From Escherichia phage EPFV3-03/2025, in sequence record PV435126.1: DNA of 64,000 bases; one strand, given 5' to 3'. The position numbers and the translations under genes are program-made. The notes below the pieces were generated by a model, which worked only from the letters and a program-made list of their open reading frames with translations, did no database searches and was not told the DNA's origin. Below, piece after piece: positions 49,144 to 57,611 of this stretch (position 1 is its first letter; the number at the start of each line of letters is the position of its first letter).

Positions 49144-52100
49144 ATGAGCATGTGGTCGTTCGATTTTGAGGCCTCTGGCTTGCTGGAAGACCCAGATCTT
49201 TATTATCACTGCGGTTTGTTTAAAGAGCTGAATAAGAACCGTTTTATGCTGTTCCTCCCCCTAAATGACCGCACACACTACTCTGAAGAGGATGTGGAGA
49301 AAGCTAAGAACTTCATTCTGGCAAAAAAGACCCTTTATACAGATTTTGAGGCTCGCATAGCAGATTTTTCAGAGTTGGAAGGCTGGCTTACAGGTAATTC
49401 AGATTGGTCACCTACGGCTTTGAACTGTCATAACTGCTACAGCTACGACTTTATGCTGATGGAAAGATTATCCGGTATTCATTTTGATATGTTCCGTGAT
49501 CCTAAATGCATGGGAACTATCAACGACCACCAGGTTAATCTGTTTGATACGTTAGCGATGAGTCGAATCTTGTGGCCTGACCGCCCTTTGCCAAAAGGTT
49601 GTCCGGACGCAGTATTCAATCCAGTTACCAAGAAAATGCAGCCTGTTGGGCCTCATGGCCTTATGGCATGGGGCTATGCCCTTGGTAACCAGAAAGTTCA
49701 AATCGATGACTGGCGTGAGCTTCCGCTGTGGAAGTATGTGGATCGTGTGTTCGAGGACGTTATCATTCAGGAGTTGCTCTGGAAGGAGTTGGTAGCTGAA
49801 TCAAAAGGTGTATTCTACGGCAAATCTGACATGCAGAACTTTATGTATGACCCTGCCAAAGAGAAGCCTAAAGGATTCAAGAAGATTACCTGGAAGAATG
49901 CATTACGCCGAGGCATGCTGCAGCATTTCCTGATGGAGCTGCAGGCTCGACAGGGTGTGTATTTCGACATAGATGGGGCTATTGCTTTACGTGACCGCTG
50001 CGATGCGTGGATGAAAGAGATCGCTGATCGTGTTGAACCACAACTTCCTTTAAAAGAGTTATCAATGTCTCAGCGGCCTAAGTTCCCTGAAAAGCCGTTT
50101 AACCAGGATGGGACAATCTCTAATAACGGTTGGAAATGGTTAAAAGACAAGCTTGGCTATCCTGTGGATATGGGTGCTTTAGAATTCAAAGCTCCGCCTA
50201 AGCGAGCCTTTACCTCCACAGGAGATGTCAGCAAAATGGGGATAAAATGGTGTGAAGAGATGGGCTGCAAAGACCCCGATAAGATGGCTGATTTCTTAAG
50301 GGGGTATATTAAAGGAACCTCTACACCGCACCCTTTACCTAAAGAACTAATGGATCAGGCAATAAGTGATCTGCAGCAGAAGCGGATGCCTGACTGCAAG
50401 ATACCTATGAAGATCAGCAACCAGGACGACATCAAGCGATACCTGATCAGTGCTGGTTGGCTCCCAACAATGTGGAGAACTAAGGATGTAACTAAAGACA
50501 GCAAGAAGAAAGCTTTACCTGATGCAGATGTTGATGCACGAGTATATGCATATATGGACGAGCTTTTGGAGTCAGAGTATTGTGACCTGATTATCAACTT
50601 CTGGAACAAAACTGATGCCAAGTTCCAGACAACCGTGCACAAGTTCCGAAGCTTCCCTAACTCAGAAAGGATTAAAAAGGAAGTGTTTGGGAAGATACGT
50701 AGAAAAGCCAGAGCGCTTATTACTTCTCCGCAACTGAAAGATACGTTTGGACACCTGTGCCCGAATCTTGAAAAATTGAACGGGGAGATGGCTAAAGATA
50801 TCGTTTTGTGGTTATCATTGCGAAACCGCAGATCGGTCCTTGATCCAATCAAGGAGGATAAGGTTGATACTGGTCTTCTTAATCATCCACGTTTGAAGAT
50901 TGACCATAAGCTTCCTGCTAAAAGTTCTGGATTAACAAACACTTCAAGACAGAAACACAGCATTTGTGCAAACATGCCTAAACCATCTCCTAAAGTGGTT
51001 ATGGGTAAAGAGATGCGTAGTCTGTGGGGTGTTCCTCCAGGATACTTTGAGATCGGTATTGACGGGTCTAACTTAGAGCAGCTTATTGGGGCTTGGGGTG
51101 CCTTTGAGTTTGACAACGGCCTGTATTATGATGTTGTAAGTAACGGCGATGCACACTGTTATTCAGGAGATACACAAATTCTCACGGAGAAAGGGTGGGT
51201 GAGGTTTGAAGATCTTGATCCGGGAACACAAGTGTTCCAGTACGATCACAACACCTCGTCGATGAACCTTGTTACTCCATTAAATTACGTTAAGCGTAGT
51301 TATTGTGGGGATATGTATCATTTCCACAACAGCAGTGTGGATTTTATGGTTACAGATCAACACAGGATGCTGACCGTGGATCACAGAAGCAATAAATTGT
51401 TTGAAGATTTGGCAAAAGACCTGAAAGCAGGTAAAGGGTCTAATTCAGGAAGAAGGTTTATCCATGCGGCAGAGTTTTATGGGAATACAACCTTATCTCC
51501 TGCCCAGGTTAATTTGCTTATTGCTATTCACGATGATGGGTACTTGCATACAAATAAGGACGGCAGCATCGTGTGCAGGATTCAGGCCGGGAAGGGCAGA
51601 AAAGTTGCAACGCTTTTAGATACTTTTTCTGCTCTAAGCCTTAGTTATGTAGAGCAGAGCGGGAAAACCACAAAAGGAGGCTTACTGGCGAGAAGGTTCC
51701 AATTCCACGTTCCGTCCTGGGTATTTGAGTTTTTGGACAGCAATAAGGATTTCACCTACAACCTGATGGACCTTGATAAAGAATCTAAAAACCTGTTTAT
51801 AGCTTCTTTATCTAACTGGGACGGGTGGGTATCTCCCGAAGGTGGAAAAGTTGCCTACTACTCTCAGGCCGAGTGCAGGAAGAAATCTGTAGAGGTTGTG
51901 TCTGCGCTGGCTACTCAGTGTGGTTTACGGAATAATACGGTGGCGATTCACAAAAAAGGTCGTTCCGTACAGCACAGAATCACGATTGGTAGCAAACAGA
52001 GAGCAGGGTTGCTGACACTATCTAAAGAGCCTGTCGGGGTGAGCGGTTCTTTGGTTTATTGCGTTACCGTCCCTTCTGGAGCAATCATTGTGAGAAGGAA

Positions 52101-52536
52101 TGGTAAAGTGGCAGTGTGCGGTAACTGTAATAACGCCAAAGCTTACTCTTCTGTAGCAGGCAAGGAGATTTCCCGTAACGATGGTAAGCCTGTCACGTAC
52201 GGTGTTATGTACGGGGCACAAAAAGATAAAGTTGCAGACATGCTGGATATCTCTCCAGAGTTGGGGCAAAGGGTAATCGATGCGCTTTGGGATGCCAACC
52301 CAGGTCTTAAGGGGCGTAAAGAGGATCTGGAGAAATTCTGGGAAGCAACAGGTAAGAAATTTATCTACTCTTTTGACGGTCATGCCATCTGGACCCGATC
52401 TAAACACTCTTTACTTAATGCATACCAACAGAATGGTGGTGCATCGTTGTGTGACTTAGTTGGGATACTCATGCACCACCAAATGGTGAAGCGTGGGTGG
52501 TACGATGAAGGTGTCCGTCGTATTATTTATTACCAT
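49144..52536 (+). CDS. family A (T7-like) DNA polymerase, exon 1, containing an in-frame intein
   Basis: ExoI-like FDFEASGL and YHCGLF at the N-terminus; motif A-like GIDGSNLEQLIGAW; motif B-like RNDGKPVTYGVMYGAQ. The track ORF stops at HK* exactly where motif C (HDE) is expected; reading resumes in exon 2. Confidence 0.8.
51157..52125 (+). mobile_element. intein with LAGLIDADG-type homing endonuclease domain, inserted in the DNA polymerase
   Basis: 323 codons between polymerase motifs A and B. Begins CYSGDTQILTEKGW (intein block A), block B-like VTDQH, LAGLIDADG-like LLIAIHDDGY and FIASLSNWDGW, ends ...VAVCGN followed by Cys (+1). Flanking exteins (NGDAH / CNNAKAY...) align with the T7 polymerase GDIH-TKNQ region. 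Confidence 0.75.
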
Positions 52537-52812
52537 AAATAACATTGTGGCTTCATAGAGTAATCTATGTCGAATAACCTCTTTAACTGCGGGAAGCCTA
52601 AACCTTATGGCAAGGTAATCCGCAACGAAGCGCTCAAAAGAGCGAACGCTCAGAGGCCATTCCGAAAGGAAGTAGACCAGCAAGTGCGGTCGAAATGGGA
52701 GGATTCCTGTGGTTGCTTATCATAGGAATATGAGATGGTCCGATCCTACGTGAAAACGTATGGCTATGCACGTAATGGTGCGGGGTAGCTTAACGACCTA
52801 CCTGAACTATTG
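52537..52812 (+). ncRNA. group I self-splicing intron (no ORF) in the DNA polymerase gene
   Basis: 276 nt between exon 1 (ends ...YYH, last nt U) and exon 2 (DEYQ...). P-like AACUGCGGGAAG (~52585), Q-like AAUCCGCAAC (~52617), R-like GUAGACCAGCAAG (~52670), S-like GAGAUGGUCCGA (~52731). Possible P1 pairing of exon CCAU with intron GUGG; intron ends in G. Confidence 0.7.
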
Positions 52813-53166
52813 GATGAGTACCAACTTCAAGTCCCTGACACGCCTAAGTATAAGACTGTGTACACCTTCGACACAATTGAAGAACTGGAAGCATTTAAGG
52901 CAGAACAGGAGGCCAAACTTCATGTGTTTGACGGTCATAAGTACAAAAAGGCACGCAAGGATGAGAACGGAAACGAAGTGGTTGACAGAGACGGAAACAC
53001 GGTGTACGATCCTATTCTGAACGATGACGGAAAGCTTGAACTTATCTGGAGCCCTGTGGGTGAAATGGTGGTGCATTGCTTCTGGCAAGCTTCTAAAATG
53101 ATGGGCGTCCCGTTCCAGATCACAGGTGAATACCTGTGCGGTCGTAATTGGGGTGATTGTCACTAA
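52813..53166 (+). CDS. family A DNA polymerase, exon 2 (motif C to C-terminus)
   Basis: In the track as ORF 52810-53166 with an artefactual TTG start. Encodes DEYQLQV... (completing HDE) and ends ...GRNWGDCH, paralleling the T7 polymerase C-terminus ...GPNWAICH. Confidence 0.75.
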   Translation, partial: DEYQLQVPDTPKYKTVYTFDTIEELEAFKAEQEAKLHVFDGHKYKKARKDENGNEVVDRDGNTVYDPILNDDGKLELIWSPVGEMVVHCFWQASKMMGVPFQITGEYLCGRNWGDCH

Positions 53167-53215
53167 TGTAAACTATCAACACATGGAAGTGTTGTTGAGC
53201 AAAGAGGAGACTTTT

Positions 53216-53500
53216 ATGGTAGTAGAACCGACAAAAACATTTACCTCCATGACTATTCCTGTTATTATGCAGGTAGAGTGCGTTCAGGTGTCCCAAGTGT
53301 GGCCAGGTACTAAAATTCCAACAGGGCCTGATTTCTTCCAGGTTGGAAAGGTGTACAATGTATGGAAGGCACCGGATTGTTACCCTTTCATTAAAGATGA
53401 CCGTGGAATGTTATGGTATCTGGGAAATGATTTGACACTACATCTTGGAAATGCTATTATTGCAGTGTTCCGGCTCAACAAGAAGGGGGCAGATCAATGA
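53216..53500 (+). CDS. small protein, paralog family member 1
   Basis: Track ORF 53126-53500; likely start ATG 53216 after AAAGAGGAGA. Shares the pattern F..G..Y.V....D..G..W with the next two ORFs. Confidence 0.45.
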   Translation: MVVEPTKTFTSMTIPVIMQVECVQVSQVWPGTKIPTGPDFFQVGKVYNVWKAPDCYPFIKDDRGMLWYLGNDLTLHLGNAIIAVFRLNKKGADQ

Positions 53501-53724
53501 CAACTTTGGTTAAAGCTACGTTTGTAGAAGAAAAGATGACAGGCTTGTCATTCTTTAAAGAAGGAAAGACCTACAAGGTTTATTACGATAAGGATCGCGG
53601 AAACAATATGATCGAAGACGAGGAAGGTATTTCCTGGTATATCTCTCACCTGGCAAATGGTGAGTATCATATCTATGGAACCACCCTACTTGCCAAGTTT
53701 GTAGCTGCTGAAGAGGATCTATGA
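53497..53724 (+). CDS. small protein, paralog family member 2
   Basis: 75 aa; FFKEGKTYKVYYDKDRG...DEEGISWYI. Confidence 0.45.
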   Translation: MTTLVKATFVEEKMTGLSFFKEGKTYKVYYDKDRGNNMIEDEEGISWYISHLANGEYHIYGTTLLAKFVAAEEDL

Positions 53725-53915
53725 AAGTAAAGTATCTGGCTGAAGGTATGAGTAGGTATTTTACCCTTGGAGAAGAGTATTGGCCCTTTACGGAAAATGG
53801 AGATGTATACGTGAAGGATGACCAAGGTGTGCCGTGGTTTCTGCACCATAATGGGTTGGGGTATTCCATCTACTGCGGTGCAGTGAACAACACAACCCTT
53901 GCAGAGTTTGTCTAG
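53721..53915 (+). CDS. small protein, paralog family member 3
   Basis: 64 aa; YFTLGEEYWPF...DDQGVPWFL. Confidence 0.45.
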   Translation: MKVKYLAEGMSRYFTLGEEYWPFTENGDVYVKDDQGVPWFLHHNGLGYSIYCGAVNNTTLAEFV

Positions 53916-53925
53916 AGGAGGCAGA

Positions 53926-54297
53926 ATGTTAGTAAAAGGTACCCACACAGTCAAGCAACGTATTGAGGTTGAGATTGATGATTGTGAGCTGAAGCATATC
54001 TTACGGTCGTGCTCCAACGTTTTGCTCCTCAGTATTCTCCAGGAGCGAGCGGAGAACGAGTTCTTAAATGCACTGGCAGGCCGTCCTGGGGACTTCTGTG
54101 TGCGTAAGCGTGAAGATCATAAGTCATGGTTGTGGGAAATCGATGCCGACTGGGATTACCACAAAAATGAGGGCATAGATGAGCCTATTCGTGAATTGAC
54201 AGATAAAGAGATTCAGATGTACAATGAAGTTTGTCATTGGGCAAAACGCCAACAAATTTACCTCGACCCTGCGTGGATGATTGAAAATAGCCATTGA
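53926..54297 (+). CDS. hypothetical protein
   Basis: Track ORF 53899-54297; ATG 53926 after AGAGGAGG. Confidence 0.45.
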   Translation: MLVKGTHTVKQRIEVEIDDCELKHILRSCSNVLLLSILQERAENEFLNALAGRPGDFCVRKREDHKSWLWEIDADWDYHKNEGIDEPIRELTDKEIQMYNEVCHWAKRQQIYLDPAWMIENSH

Positions 54298-54322
54298 CAA
54301 GAAGTAAGATTGGGTATAAGAT
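54294..54322 (+). promoter_or_regulatory. sigma70-like promoter (TTGACA-17-TAAGAT)
   Basis: Consensus -35; upstream of 54374. Confidence 0.4.
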
Positions 54323-54373
54323 GCTTCACACAAACAGAGAGTTTATTTTTAAATAATTAAGGAGACTGCTAAG

Positions 54374-54628
54374 ATGAAAATCACTTTGAAGCCAGAATGT
54401 GTTGCAAATGACCGAGCTTTTAAAGATTGCACAATCGGTGCAATTTATGAAGCAGAGTTTTGTGAGAACCCTCTGGTAAAAGCCCTTCTGGAAGAAGGGG
54501 CACCTTTATCACAAGAAGAACTTGATGAGTTGGAAAACTCAGCCCAGTGCCTTACCTTTAAAGATGATGAAGGAGATTCTGTCTGGTGCACTGTTAACGA
54601 AGTAGTTTTTGTAAAACCTGAGCATTAA
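54374..54628 (+). CDS. small protein (KDD-G-D family)
   Basis: 84 aa; RBS AAGGAGA; paralogous to 54692-54964 (KP..L..D.AF.DCT....Y). Confidence 0.5.
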   Translation: MKITLKPECVANDRAFKDCTIGAIYEAEFCENPLVKALLEEGAPLSQEELDELENSAQCLTFKDDEGDSVWCTVNEVVFVKPEH

Positions 54629-54631
54629 TAC

Positions 54632-54660
54632 TTGACAACATCGATAGGGCCTAATACAAT
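54632..54660 (+). promoter_or_regulatory. sigma70-like promoter (TTGACA-17-TACAAT)
   Basis: Good -35 and -10 with 17-nt spacer; overlaps the track ORF start, so the downstream ATG 54692 is the likelier start. Confidence 0.5.
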
Positions 54661-54691
54661 GGCTCTATCAAAACGGAAGGGGACCACAACA

Positions 54692-54964
54692 ATGACCAAA
54701 CAGTATCAACGAATTAAAGCCAAGGTTAAGCCAGATTACTTAGAGAAGGACTCTGCTTTTCGGGACTGCACTGCAGATAAAGTTTACACAGGTGCTGTTC
54801 TGTTAAACGATAAATTTGAAGTGGATGGGCTTGGCAAAGAGGCTACTATCAAGGATGACCAGGGAGATTATGTTTGCTGCACCACACGCGAGCTAGAAAT
54901 CTTAGAATACTTCGGTGAAATCTTCACCTCTCTTGATGATTACTTAGATGACGAGGCAGAGTGA
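54692..54964 (+). CDS. small protein (KDD-G-D family)
   Basis: Track ORF 54632-54964 trimmed to the ATG after GGAAGGGGA. Confidence 0.45.
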   Translation: MTKQYQRIKAKVKPDYLEKDSAFRDCTADKVYTGAVLLNDKFEVDGLGKEATIKDDQGDYVCCTTRELEILEYFGEIFTSLDDYLDDEAE

Positions 54965-55365
54965 TGAAAAACATTTGGGATATCAATATCTTTGAAGCCT
55001 CTGAGCTTGACGGTGCCGATGGGGTTATTATAGTTTCTGATGGAAAGGCAACACTGACCTCTGGACTGACCTATGAGGACACTACCTACGCATTGGGCGA
55101 TCTTGCCTTGTTGAAATCAACAGGCGACTCTCTGGAAGAACGTCTGCAAGGATTTGCCTTTAAAGAAGGCACAAACACCACACTGATGTGCACTACACGC
55201 ACTGTTCAGTTGGGCAACGGGGTATATATGGTCATTGCAGTGTGCCCCAAATTCAGCAACATTAATAAAGATGATGCTGACGCTGTCAACGACGTGGTTG
55301 TCCTATTCGTGGGTGACGCTATGGCAGATCTGATGAATGCAGGAGAAGCAGCAAATGAAGACTGA
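54961..55365 (+). CDS. hypothetical protein
   Basis: 134-aa ORF. Confidence 0.45.
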   Translation: MMKNIWDINIFEASELDGADGVIIVSDGKATLTSGLTYEDTTYALGDLALLKSTGDSLEERLQGFAFKEGTNTTLMCTTRTVQLGNGVYMVIAVCPKFSNINKDDADAVNDVVVLFVGDAMADLMNAGEAANED

Positions 55366-55657
55366 AAACATTACACCAGAAGGATTCCTGAAAGTATACC
55401 GTGAACTATTGTATACCACAGAGGATAGTGTTCTAGAGTACCCAGAATATCTTTTGCTATATAAGTATCTGCAGGAAGCTGGTGAAAATCTTCCAATTAG
55501 CGCAGAAGGGGGTCCAAACTGGGTCTACAGTGCATGGAGAAAGGTTGACATTCTCCCAGATCCCGGTAAAGATATGGTAGTTTGGCAGCTTATCAACAAC
55601 ATCGGGATTCCAATCTTTGATGAAGCTGTTAAAATCTATTTTGAACTTGACGATTAA
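55355..55657 (+). CDS. hypothetical protein
   Basis: Track ORF 55337-55657; ATG 55355 after AGGAGAAG. Confidence 0.45.
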   Translation: MKTENITPEGFLKVYRELLYTTEDSVLEYPEYLLLYKYLQEAGENLPISAEGGPNWVYSAWRKVDILPDPGKDMVVWQLINNIGIPIFDEAVKIYFELDD

Positions 55658-55674
55658 TATCAGGAGACCTTAAG

Positions 55675-55920
55675 ATGGCTGAAGTAGTTGCTCGTGCAGG
55701 ACAGAAAGTGCGTTGTGTTGAAGTGGGTTTTGGTGGCAAAGGGTGTCAAAACTTGACTCAAGGTAAGGAATACACTGTTGTTTCTGGCGGTGGTGACAAA
55801 AGTATTGTGTTCGATGACCATATTCTGGATGTTGAAAACTTTGAAATAATTGACGATGATGGTGATCCAATCACCTGCCTGCTGGACGGGAATTGGGGAA
55901 CTTTTGAAGTGATTGGCTAA
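55675..55920 (+). CDS. hypothetical protein
   Basis: 81 aa; RBS AGGAGACC. Confidence 0.45.
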   Translation: MAEVVARAGQKVRCVEVGFGGKGCQNLTQGKEYTVVSGGGDKSIVFDDHILDVENFEIIDDDGDPITCLLDGNWGTFEVIG

Positions 55921-56002
55921 CAAATACCTGTTGTAATTTACAGAAGGAGATGCTAAAATGGTGTCTCCTTTATGTTGTTCAAATAAAATCGGAGATTCCA
56001 TA

Positions 56003-56368
56003 ATGGAACAAATGAACGATCAAGCGTCGGTTGCGATGAACGAGCAAGAACAACCTCAAGAATTTTTCTTAGGGTTAAGCAAAGATCAGGTGTCTCTCCT
56101 GCTAGTGCTCTCTTCTTTCATGGGGAGACTTCAGGAGCTCACACAACAACCAGAGGCTGAACAATTATTTCAGGCTCTGCGCGAAGAAGAAAAATATCGT
56201 CGTTTGGATTATGCCTTAGGTTGGGTAGCTCAGCAACGAGATATGCTAATGGCCCTTTCTGGGACGACAAGTTTTGCAATGGGCCTGTTGGCTCAAGTGC
56301 AAGACAAATTAATTCAAGCAGGGTTTGCACACACAGCAAACACCAACGAAGAACAAGGAGACAAATAA
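56003..56368 (+). CDS. hypothetical protein
   Basis: Track ORF 55958-56368; internal ATG (MEQMNDQ) is the likelier start. Confidence 0.4.
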   Translation: MEQMNDQASVAMNEQEQPQEFFLGLSKDQVSLLLVLSSFMGRLQELTQQPEAEQLFQALREEEKYRRLDYALGWVAQQRDMLMALSGTTSFAMGLLAQVQDKLIQAGFAHTANTNEEQGDK

Positions 56369-57594
56369 TGAGCGTTATTCAACAATTTGCCAACCCGATG
56401 AATCCGCGTGAAACTGTTTTACTGGCTCACGGTATGATTAAACGTGTCAGCATCAAACCTATCAAAGGTGCTGATCCTACAACAGGTATTAAAACCACTG
56501 TGTGGCAAGGTAAGAAAATCGAGTCCAGTCACACCATCTCTTTACTGATTTCTGAACTGGATTCTTCTGATAACCTACTTCAAGGTGGTGAAGAAGTTTG
56601 GATCAGCATGGGTGATAAATTGCTCAAACCAGGTCATCAAGATTCCGTCTCTGTTAAAATTGATGACAAGTGGGAAACAGTAACGCCGGGATGGATCGTA
56701 AATATCCCTTTAAAGGCAAATGAGCATAACGGTAAGACCTACTACAAAGGCTCATTGGCTAAAATGGTTAAGCTGGGGGCAGGAGAGGCTCCAGCAGCAC
56801 CACAGCAACAAAAACAGCAACAAGGCACACAATCACAAGGCCAGAAGCAGAAACCTCAGCAGAATGCCAATCAGGACGTTTTACGCATCTATGGTGATGT
56901 GACTCAGATTGTTGGCAATGTGGTTACTGTCAATGACCACAAGATCGGTGAAGGTGCTATGGTTGTCTCCGATGAGCAGCTTAAAGACCTGATAGTTGGC
57001 GGTCGTGTTGCAGCTATTGTTGACAAAGACACCGGGAATATTATCAGCGGCTTTAAGGCCTACCCACCTAAAGCAGAGAACGGCACTCAAGGTTCTGGTG
57101 GCAAGCGTAAATCCTCTTACGACCCTATTGGTGTAGAGACGGGGCACAGCATCAATGCGTTGCAAATCATCCTAGATCGCGGATTCAAGGTTGACAGCCC
57201 TTTAGATGTGGCTAAAACATTGCACGTGGTCACCATCGAGCTTAAGAAAGAGTACGCTCAAGCCACCAACCGGACCGAAGATGAAGTAGGTGCCAGTGTT
57301 GGTAACGCGGTATTGAACGCTTGTCGCCGTATTGACAAGAAAACGAAAGTTGATGATTTTGCAGCAGCAATTACTGCAGAGGCAAAAGATGTCTTGACTA
57401 ATCTTGCTGAACCGTTGTATGATTGGATCAAGAACGGTGCTGGAGCCACTGACCATCAAGAGCCTCAAGCTGCCAAACAGGAAGGCGCTCCACAGCAAAA
57501 CACTGTAGACGCCCCTCCTGTAGATGATGACGGAGATGACCCGATGGATCAGAATCCAGCACAGTATGACTTCTGTGATGACATACCTTTTTAA
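56368..57594 (+). CDS. putative ssDNA-binding protein (Gln-rich linker, acidic C-terminal DDIPF tip)
   Basis: Track ORF 56221-57594; likely start ATG 56368 after AAGGAGACAAATA. C-terminus ...DDDGDDPMDQNPAQYDFCDDIPF resembles the SSB acidic tail; Q-rich low-complexity linker mid-protein. Confidence 0.45.
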   Translation: MSVIQQFANPMNPRETVLLAHGMIKRVSIKPIKGADPTTGIKTTVWQGKKIESSHTISLLISELDSSDNLLQGGEEVWISMGDKLLKPGHQDSVSVKIDDKWETVTPGWIVNIPLKANEHNGKTYYKGSLAKMVKLGAGEAPAAPQQQKQQQGTQSQGQKQKPQQNANQDVLRIYGDVTQIVGNVVTVNDHKIGEGAMVVSDEQLKDLIVGGRVAAIVDKDTGNIISGFKAYPPKAENGTQGSGGKRKSSYDPIGVETGHSINALQIILDRGFKVDSPLDVAKTLHVVTIELKKEYAQATNRTEDEVGASVGNAVLNACRRIDKKTKVDDFAAAITAEAKDVLTNLAEPLYDWIKNGAGATDHQEPQAAKQEGAPQQNTVDAPPVDDDGDDPMDQNPAQYDFCDDIPF

Positions 57595-57611
57595 CATCTA
57601 GTTAACATAGC

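Follow-up and report, generated by a model that had tools for sequence, protein, structure and literature searches.

A tandem array of small paralogous genes with a predicted SH3-like barrel fold in rV5-like coliphages

Clusters of small paralogous accessory genes are common in the early regions of large lytic phages. Such a cluster lies on the + strand of a 64,000-nucleotide stretch of Escherichia phage EPFV3-03/2025 (record PV435126.1; the whole stretch is called the window below), just downstream of the DNA polymerase gene. An earlier, sequence-only reading had described it as a tandem array of diverging small paralogues, consisting of three open reading frames (ORFs) that share one motif, here termed A1, A2, and A3 of family A, and two that share another, here termed B1 and B2 of family B. 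The work presented here indicates that the two families are probably related, that a gene further downstream, D, is a sixth member, and that the A proteins are predicted to fold as small beta-barrels of the kind seen in the phage protein Gp54.

Gp54 of Escherichia phage Bas11 (JohannLBurckhardt) has a solved structure (PDB 9AXB/9ERV) and a Pfam family, PF25180, 'Phage antiviral trigger protein Gp54' (Zhang et al., Nature 2024, PMC11578894). The protein is non-essential and binds CapRelSJ46 directly; a homologue with 3 residues different does not trigger CapRel, and the escape mutations in Gp54 are G24D and W43* (PMC11578894). A second small barrel of coliphages, DUF7244, is a stand-alone SH3 protein encoded beside the lysis cassette of Drexlerviridae (Eremina et al. 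2026, PMC13164509). For rV5, by the paper on that phage, the genes considered here fall in the non-structural transcription unit, and host-type promoters occur throughout the genome; neither these genes nor any paralogy is mentioned there (PMC3606486). In the searchable literature, no Vequintavirus transcriptome, no mention of these genes, and no account of their paralogy, their fold, or a link to Gp54 was found.

The window is that of a Vequintavirus (rV5-like) coliphage: over 52500-56500 its identity is 96.9% with Escherichia phage YP-6, and 90-96% with FV3, rV5, and ~110 other Vequintavirus-type records. The five A and B ORFs correspond to five rV5 genes (Table 1), all of which are annotated as 'hypothetical protein'. 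PHROGs places each of them in a separate family of unknown function, and the finding that the paralogues cross-match one another's families agrees with the paralogy of the A and B copies. Pfam has no family for A1-A3, B1, or B2; D has only a sub-threshold match, to DUF7244.

A1-A3 are paralogous to one another, as are B1 and B2. When Smith-Waterman scores are compared with those of 2000 shuffles, the score is 67 for A1-A2 (21.9±3.9 when shuffled; Gumbel p 1.6e-7), 72 for A2-A3 (24.8±5.0; p 1.9e-6), 47 for A1-A3 (23.2±4.4; p 4e-4), and 95 for B1-B2 (26.5±4.9; p 5.7e-9). The tandem array of five + strand ORFs is thus upheld; the similarity is far beyond chance, so the earlier concern that alignments of such short sequences might lack significance falls away. 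The 4-nucleotide ATGA overlaps are seen at A1/A2 (53497-53500) and A2/A3 (53721-53724). The motif proposed for family A is essentially correct, except that the spacing from Y to D is 12-15 residues, longer than had been written, and that the V after Y is missing in A3; its invariant residues (F, G, Y, D, G, W, and H) occupy core and turn positions. The same can be said of the motif of family B, K-P...D-x-A-F-x-D-C-T...Y...K-D-D-x-G-D-x-V-x-C-T, in which the L that had been placed after KP.. is V in B1.

A family A profile, searched exhaustively with HMMER against 1.84 billion proteins, gives insight into the wider family. It returns few relatives, some of which are proteins of 179-571 amino acids (aa) from unrelated phage-like contigs that carry the domain two to five times in tandem (P0115, P0118, P0120, P0122, and P0123; compare phrog_3523 and phrog_15694), with the repeat consensus [VL]KC[VI]...[FY]FTxGKEYxV...VxDDxGD. 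(Two other proteins, P0117 and P0119, show just short fragmentary matches to several unrelated Pfam families; they were judged spurious and ignored.) In three of the contigs (L025 6001-7167, L026 5001-6716, and L027 2550-4668) there are four or five tandem copies per protein, with two such proteins adjacent in L027, and the surrounding genes are replication genes; L025 also has ArdA, an actin-like segregation protein, and a resolvase. A profile made solely of repeats from outside the Vequintavirinae loci, when run against all six-frame ORFs of the window, recovers A3 (E 7.9e-10), A2 (E 2.5e-9), A1 (E 3.1e-7), and D (E 3.8e-5), and the next ORF has an E of 0.34. (It should be noted that the repeats themselves were found with the family A profile, so that only the match to D is independent.) As judged from these profiles, A1-A3 and D are one family. 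No further member is seen in the window or in the remainder of YP-6, the closest complete genome. Word-indexed searches with A and B return close Vequintavirus-type relatives only, and tblastn of A2 against phages gives nothing significant outside the genus; its weak matches in Drexlerviridae (E 4-8) were later shown to be real distant domain matches.

Simple searches do not link A to B, and hmmsearch with the external repeat profile gives no match to family B. The link appears when profiles are compared with each other by hhalign, using divergent members from related contigs and nulls of 200 column shuffles for each pair: the scores are 27.4 for A-B, 24.3 for repeats-B, 28.7 for repeats-D, and 20.9 for B-D, against nulls of 9-10±2 (9.4±2.0 for repeats-D), and in no case does any of the 200 shuffles reach the score. 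The hhalign probability for the link of family B to A and the repeats is just 31%. Four negative controls (gene X, which lies between A3 and B1, and the genes at 54964-55365, 55355-55657, and 56003-56368) all score at the null; gene X, the DUF7238 gene at 55355 (g55355), and the gene at 56003 were on this ground rejected as members. The A-B alignment extends from the first strand through F..G..Y to DD.G, and the AlphaFold models of A2 and B2 have the same order of elements, a strand and a short helix followed by four or five strands. Taken together, these results argue that B1 and B2 are probably distant members of the A/D family, where the earlier reading had treated A and B as unrelated and recognised neither the sixth member nor the fold. 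The gene at 54964-55365 was considered as a third B paralogue, following a natural B2 fusion at a CTTR tetrapeptide and a weak blastp match, and was rejected, its profile score being 13.1 against 10.9±2.7 with 16 of 100 shuffles reaching it. At the DNA level, A3 (53814-53928) and B2 (54851-54963) have three colinear matches of 14 nucleotides each, 86-93% identical and at a spacing of 1035-1037 nucleotides, which cover the KDDQG codons, the next strand, and the gene end; they may be remnants of a duplication.

The AlphaFold model of A2 (predicted local distance difference test score, pLDDT, 91.9; predicted template modelling score, pTM, 0.80) is a six-stranded small beta-barrel of the 9AXB topology and is structurally similar to the SH3/KOW-type class of small barrels. 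A1-A3 would accordingly each keep a stand-alone small beta-barrel of ~65 aa, distinctive within the SH3-like kind and of the six-stranded Gp54(Bas11) type, with B1, B2, and D more diverged. A PDB sequence search with the A profile gives noise only, and a Foldseek search of viral structures with the B model finds only itself, its paralogue, and uncharacterised proteins. When family A is aligned with Gp54 by hhalign, F-x2-G and G-x2-W are in register, and residues G24 and W43 of Gp54 fall opposite the G and W that are invariant in family A. The gene order of a T1-like phage lends this relation circumstantial support: the Gp54 homologue of phage vojen, gp80 (E 2.4e-15 to 9axb), directly adjoins a gene, gp79, that has an E of 1.8e-7 with the repeat profile. 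A match to the A profile (E 5e-6) is also present in vojen gp75, in its C-terminal half. In T1-like phages a 70-aa gene that matches the repeat profile stands straight after the Gp54 homologue (vojen gp80), and an A-like domain is found in the C-terminal half of proteins of 117-128 aa (L005, vojen, 75-484 and 1988-2374; L006, Phagiculus, 2366-2719), which suggests that the neighbourhood of Gp54 is itself a small cluster of related barrels. The A proteins fail the sequence definition of PF25180 and are for that reason set outside the Gp54 family; sequence and models together suggest that they form a new branch of the Gp54/SH3-like small-barrel kind, divergent in sequence.

Gene X (phrog_6273), conserved across Vequintavirinae genera, served as the anchor for a comparison of copy number, which makes plain that the array varies among relatives: family A has 2, 3, 4, or 7 copies in related phages. 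The Vequintavirus type (the window, rV5, YP-6, L010, and L011) has three A genes, two B, and one D; a 139-kb metagenomic relative (L008) has four, two, and one; and two further related contigs (L007 and L009, scored on L007, with the same gene layout in L009) have seven, two, and one. A more distant lineage, in which X is 41-44% identical, has two A, two B, and one D (L012-L014; L015, with two A genes visible, ends just past X). No A, B, or D gene is present in the loci of other Vequintavirinae genera (KP12, FENT2, and L016-L024). In L007 and L008 (6274-7069), A1 is separated from the following family A copy by two inserted genes, one Ead/Ea22-like and of 200 aa, the other of 63 aa, which shows the array to be a hotspot not only of duplication but also of gene insertion. 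Further traces of ongoing rearrangement are an A1 variant (P0031) with an in-frame tandem duplication of 11 aa, KAPDCHPFIKE/KAPNCYPFIKD, and a B2 variant (P0064) onto which the C-terminal part of the next gene is naturally fused at the shared CTTR. Downstream, g55355 (55355-55657; DUF7238 match of 30.7 bits, above the cut-off) shares 97% identity with the L007 lineage, against 56-62% for the genes on either side, a sharp mosaic boundary that suggests recombination.

Every copy is under purifying selection, with no gene-wide positive selection. Within the genus, the Nei-Gojobori ratio of nonsynonymous to synonymous substitution rates (dN/dS) is 0.04 for A1, 0.17 for A2 (a value that one relative's non-orthologous copy may have raised somewhat), 0.10 for A3, 0.10 for X, B1, and B2, and 0.17 for D, compared with 0.02-0.03 for polymerase exon 2 and two flanking genes. 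Relative to the L007 lineage, the A, B, and D proteins are 42-74% identical, and polymerase exon 2 and g55355 95-97%. These values, together with the conservation of the array ORFs in >110 phage records, argue that the genes are functional and evolve several-fold faster than their neighbours. The earlier description of the paralogues as fast-evolving is therefore apt for A2, A3, B1, B2, and D, which lie above the flanking genes, but not for A1, which within the genus is as conserved as core genes.

How the array may be expressed is suggested by three predicted sigma-70 promoters (Table 1), of which those upstream of B1 and B2 are near-consensus. The candidate inside A1 has the same two hexamers in five Vequintavirus loci even though synonymous sites around it vary, and the hexamers upstream of B1 and B2 are conserved in six loci, with variable spacers and flanks; the position of the B2 promoter favours the start at 54692 over an upstream ATG at 54659. 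(The total of promoter-like sites does not exceed that of shuffles, 22 versus 16.1±4.1, and one such site, at 54196, is not kept in relatives and was treated as chance.) Terminator-like sites are absent from the A1-B2 block: a weak one comes after D, at 55943, and the single strong one lies at 57610. The sequence-only reading had assigned the array to an early region, and the non-structural unit of rV5 (PMC3606486) and the conserved promoters make early expression plausible, but the timing itself is a deduction.

These observations can be brought together in the following proposal. The accessory-gene cluster of Vequintavirus and a sister lineage would have arisen from one small-barrel gene by successive tandem duplications and divergence, and would be transcribed by unmodified host RNA polymerase from the conserved sigma-70 promoters, with A1-A3 translationally coupled through their ATGA overlaps; given these promoters and this coupling, all copies would be made early or in mid infection. 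Each copy would be a non-enzymatic protein-binding module. The conserved F-x2-G...Y...D-x2-G-x2-W residues would form the core and turns of the barrel, and the divergent strands and loops would give each paralogue its own surface and its own partner, most likely a host or defence protein; as with Gp54, host immune sensors could recognise such proteins. The array products are mostly acidic and cytoplasmic-looking and have no catalytic motif: five of the six have an isoelectric point (pI) of 4.2-4.9 and a net charge of -4 to -12, A1 is near neutral, and inspection of the sequences reveals no hydrophobic N-terminal signal and no membrane-spanning segment in any copy. A binder would be favoured over an enzyme or a nucleic-acid binder because the proteins are acidic, their invariants lie only in the core and turns, and they belong to no Pfam or PADLOC family. 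(The hidden Markov models, HMMs, of PADLOC-DB give no match to ten locus proteins at E<=0.1; that database covers components of defence systems and not phage counter-defence, so this negative does not bear on an anti-defence role.) By analogy, sequence, and modelling, we would give the proposal of early or middle protein-binding modules with probable host or defence partners about an even chance of being right.

Several points weigh against it. A1-A3, B1, B2, and D have no match to PF25180 even at E<=1 (cut-off 27 bits; Gp54 of Bas11, as the positive control, scores 116 bits), an HMM built from 21 Gp54 homologues has no match in these loci, and the hhalign score of family A with Gp54 is marginal (15.6 versus 9.9±2.0 when shuffled, with 2 of 200 shuffles reaching it; P 0.048). 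The structures are model predictions based on shallow alignments, the genes evolve under purifying selection and bear no arms-race signature at the level of the whole gene, and the early timing is drawn from promoter consensus only. In addition, we infer the role of every member, and Gp54 itself has no known function. As for the host-interaction function that had been read into the array, no copy is linked to any host target, and the claim is not borne out. Finally, the domain recurs beside replication genes, which would fit a replisome-associated role equally.

A role in the replication module is in fact the main rival: the proteins would serve the phage replication machinery as adaptors or accessory subunits that bind polymerase, helicase, primase, single-stranded DNA-binding protein, or host replication factors. 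In its favour, the array directly follows the helicase and DNA polymerase genes, the multi-repeat proteins of the three unrelated contigs sit among genes for DnaB, Toprim primase, DEAD helicase, RecA, or Prim-Pol, and the Drexlerviridae Gp54 homologue and its relatives are beside a DNA methylase and a helicase. However, small accessory genes often share early or middle operons with replication genes, which makes such linkage weak evidence; other Vequintavirinae genera have homologous replication genes yet none of A, B, and D; the copy number ranges between 2 and 7; and Gp54 is dispensable for Bas11 in the laboratory (PMC11578894). On balance we regard this role as improbable. Less probable still, and in our judgement distinctly unlikely, is that the proteins are nucleic-acid-binding small barrels of the SH3, KOW, Tudor, or Sm kind, acting on phage or host RNA or DNA as, for example, regulators or chaperones, a function that sits poorly with the strong acidity of five of the six proteins and with the lack of a conserved basic or aromatic surface motif. 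It is very unlikely that they are cell-wall-binding stand-alone SH3 proteins that aid lysis, as proposed for DUF7244 of T1-like phages. D and two of the repeat proteins do resemble DUF7244 (PF23896, SH3 clan), but at 15-22 bits against a cut-off of 27 (D, 15.3 bits, E 0.021; A and B, no match); moreover, the proteins have neither an N-terminal signal nor a membrane-spanning segment, and the locus is in the replication region, at a distance of ~85 kb in the record from the GH104 glycoside hydrolase that is the only annotated lysis-type enzyme of the closest genome. That the similarity is chance among short ORFs, or that the ORFs are not genes, might be suspected from their length (64-94 aa) and pairwise identity (just 23-38%), but is already refuted by the shuffle tests, the recovery of copies by independent profiles, dN/dS well under 1, retention in >110 genomes, confident models, and the presence of ribosome-binding sites.

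If the proposal of duplicated protein-binding modules is taken further, the Gp54-type barrel might serve coliphages as a general binder scaffold that is readily evolved and is multiplied as arrays of 2-7 genes or as repeats within a polypeptide, in which each copy neutralises or decoys a different host immunity protein, and sensors such as CapRel would have evolved to recognise a scaffold on which phages depend. This is a speculative extension that we think improbable. If true, the rV5 array would be a compact counter-defence repertoire whose members could be matched one-to-one with defence systems. More immediately, the array provides a rationale and natural variants for asking what such non-essential proteins do and how specific immune sensing is, and the models offer a provisional structural annotation for six 'hypothetical proteins' in >110 Vequintavirus-type records, a group to which the O157 typing phage V5 belongs; the practical value of the finding at present is that of a well-defined hypothesis.

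Table 1. Genes and predicted promoters of the array, with positions in the window
Feature	Position	Strand	Length (aa)	rV5 gene	PHROG	Remarks
A1	53216-53500	+	94	gp219	phrog_12922	family A; 38-aa N-terminal extension; GAGGAG Shine-Dalgarno sequence before 53216
Candidate internal sigma-70 promoter	53432-53460	+				TTGACA-17-TATTAT with TG; inside 3' end of A1, upstream of A2; 11/12 match
A2	53497-53724	+	75	gp218	phrog_12623	family A; structure modelled
A3	53721-53915	+	64	gp217	phrog_12802	family A; ATGA overlap with A2
Gene X	53926-54297	+	123	gp216	phrog_6273	between A3 and B1; GAGGAGG Shine-Dalgarno sequence before 53926; non-member
Predicted sigma-70 promoter upstream of B1	54294-54322	+				TTGACA-17-TAAGAT; P220 as annotated in the rV5 record
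B1	54374-54628	+	84	gp215	phrog_12544	family B; net charge -12, acidic helical insert; AAGGAG Shine-Dalgarno sequence before 54374
Predicted sigma-70 promoter upstream of B2	54632-54660	+				TTGACA-17-TACAAT; TATAAT in three relatives; 11/12 match
B2	54692-54964	+	90	gp214	phrog_11936	family B; structure modelled
D	55675-55920	+	81	gp211	phrog_4927	sixth superfamily member, beyond the five ORFs first described

The neighbouring DNA polymerase gene has features of its own. A group I intron (52537-52812; Rfam RF00028 match at 52527-52762, 64.7 bits, gathering score 50) splits it within motif C, with exon 1 ending ...IIYYH and exon 2 starting DEYQLQV, where the uninterrupted polymerase of Enterobacter phage FENT2 has YYHDEYQLQV; the last base of the 5' exon is T and that of the intron is G. 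Relatives such as FV3 and FFH2 have an HNH endonuclease gene in the intron stretch, and the polymerase of Klebsiella phage KP12, of another lineage, is split at the same codon. In the rV5 record, exon 2 is a separate 'DNA polymerase' coding sequence, and two ORFs are called in the intron stretch, one (52567-52725 of the window) inside the intron and the other (52760-53020) beginning in it and overlapping exon 2; the rV5 paper describes introns in the terminase gene only (PMC3606486). Exon 1 contains an intein-like insertion of 323 aa (51157-52125; aa 672-994 of ORF 49144-52542), which begins with CYSGDTQILTEKG and has VAVCGN as its last residues, with C next; the insertion is present in YP-6, is missing from the 809-aa polymerase of the related contig L007, and matches Pfam Hint_2 below threshold (20.1 bits). 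The one polymerase gene would thus bear both an intron and, if this sub-threshold match is correct, an intein. An Rfam snR75 match at 54931-55006 is below threshold and was dismissed.

Set beside known systems, the array is like the accessory clusters of early regions in general in its packed short genes, its host-type promoters, and its variable content between close relatives; unlike the general case, its members are predicted to share a defined fold with a relative of solved structure. DUF7244 is likewise a small stand-alone SH3-like barrel of coliphages, but its genes are beside the lysis cassette, whereas the array is beside replication genes. The multi-repeat phage proteins appear to carry the same domain, their repeat unit matching A1-A3 at E 3e-7 to 8e-10 and D more weakly, but have the copies fused in one polypeptide where the array has one gene per copy. 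Gp54 resembles the A proteins in being a stand-alone single domain of ~65 aa that is mildly acidic and encoded among small genes near replication genes; it differs from the rV5 proteins in that there is no significant sequence similarity, and in being single-copy in vojen where rV5 has an expanded array. Members of the Gp54 family proper were found solely on contigs of ~50 kb, such as are typical of T1-like Drexlerviridae phages.

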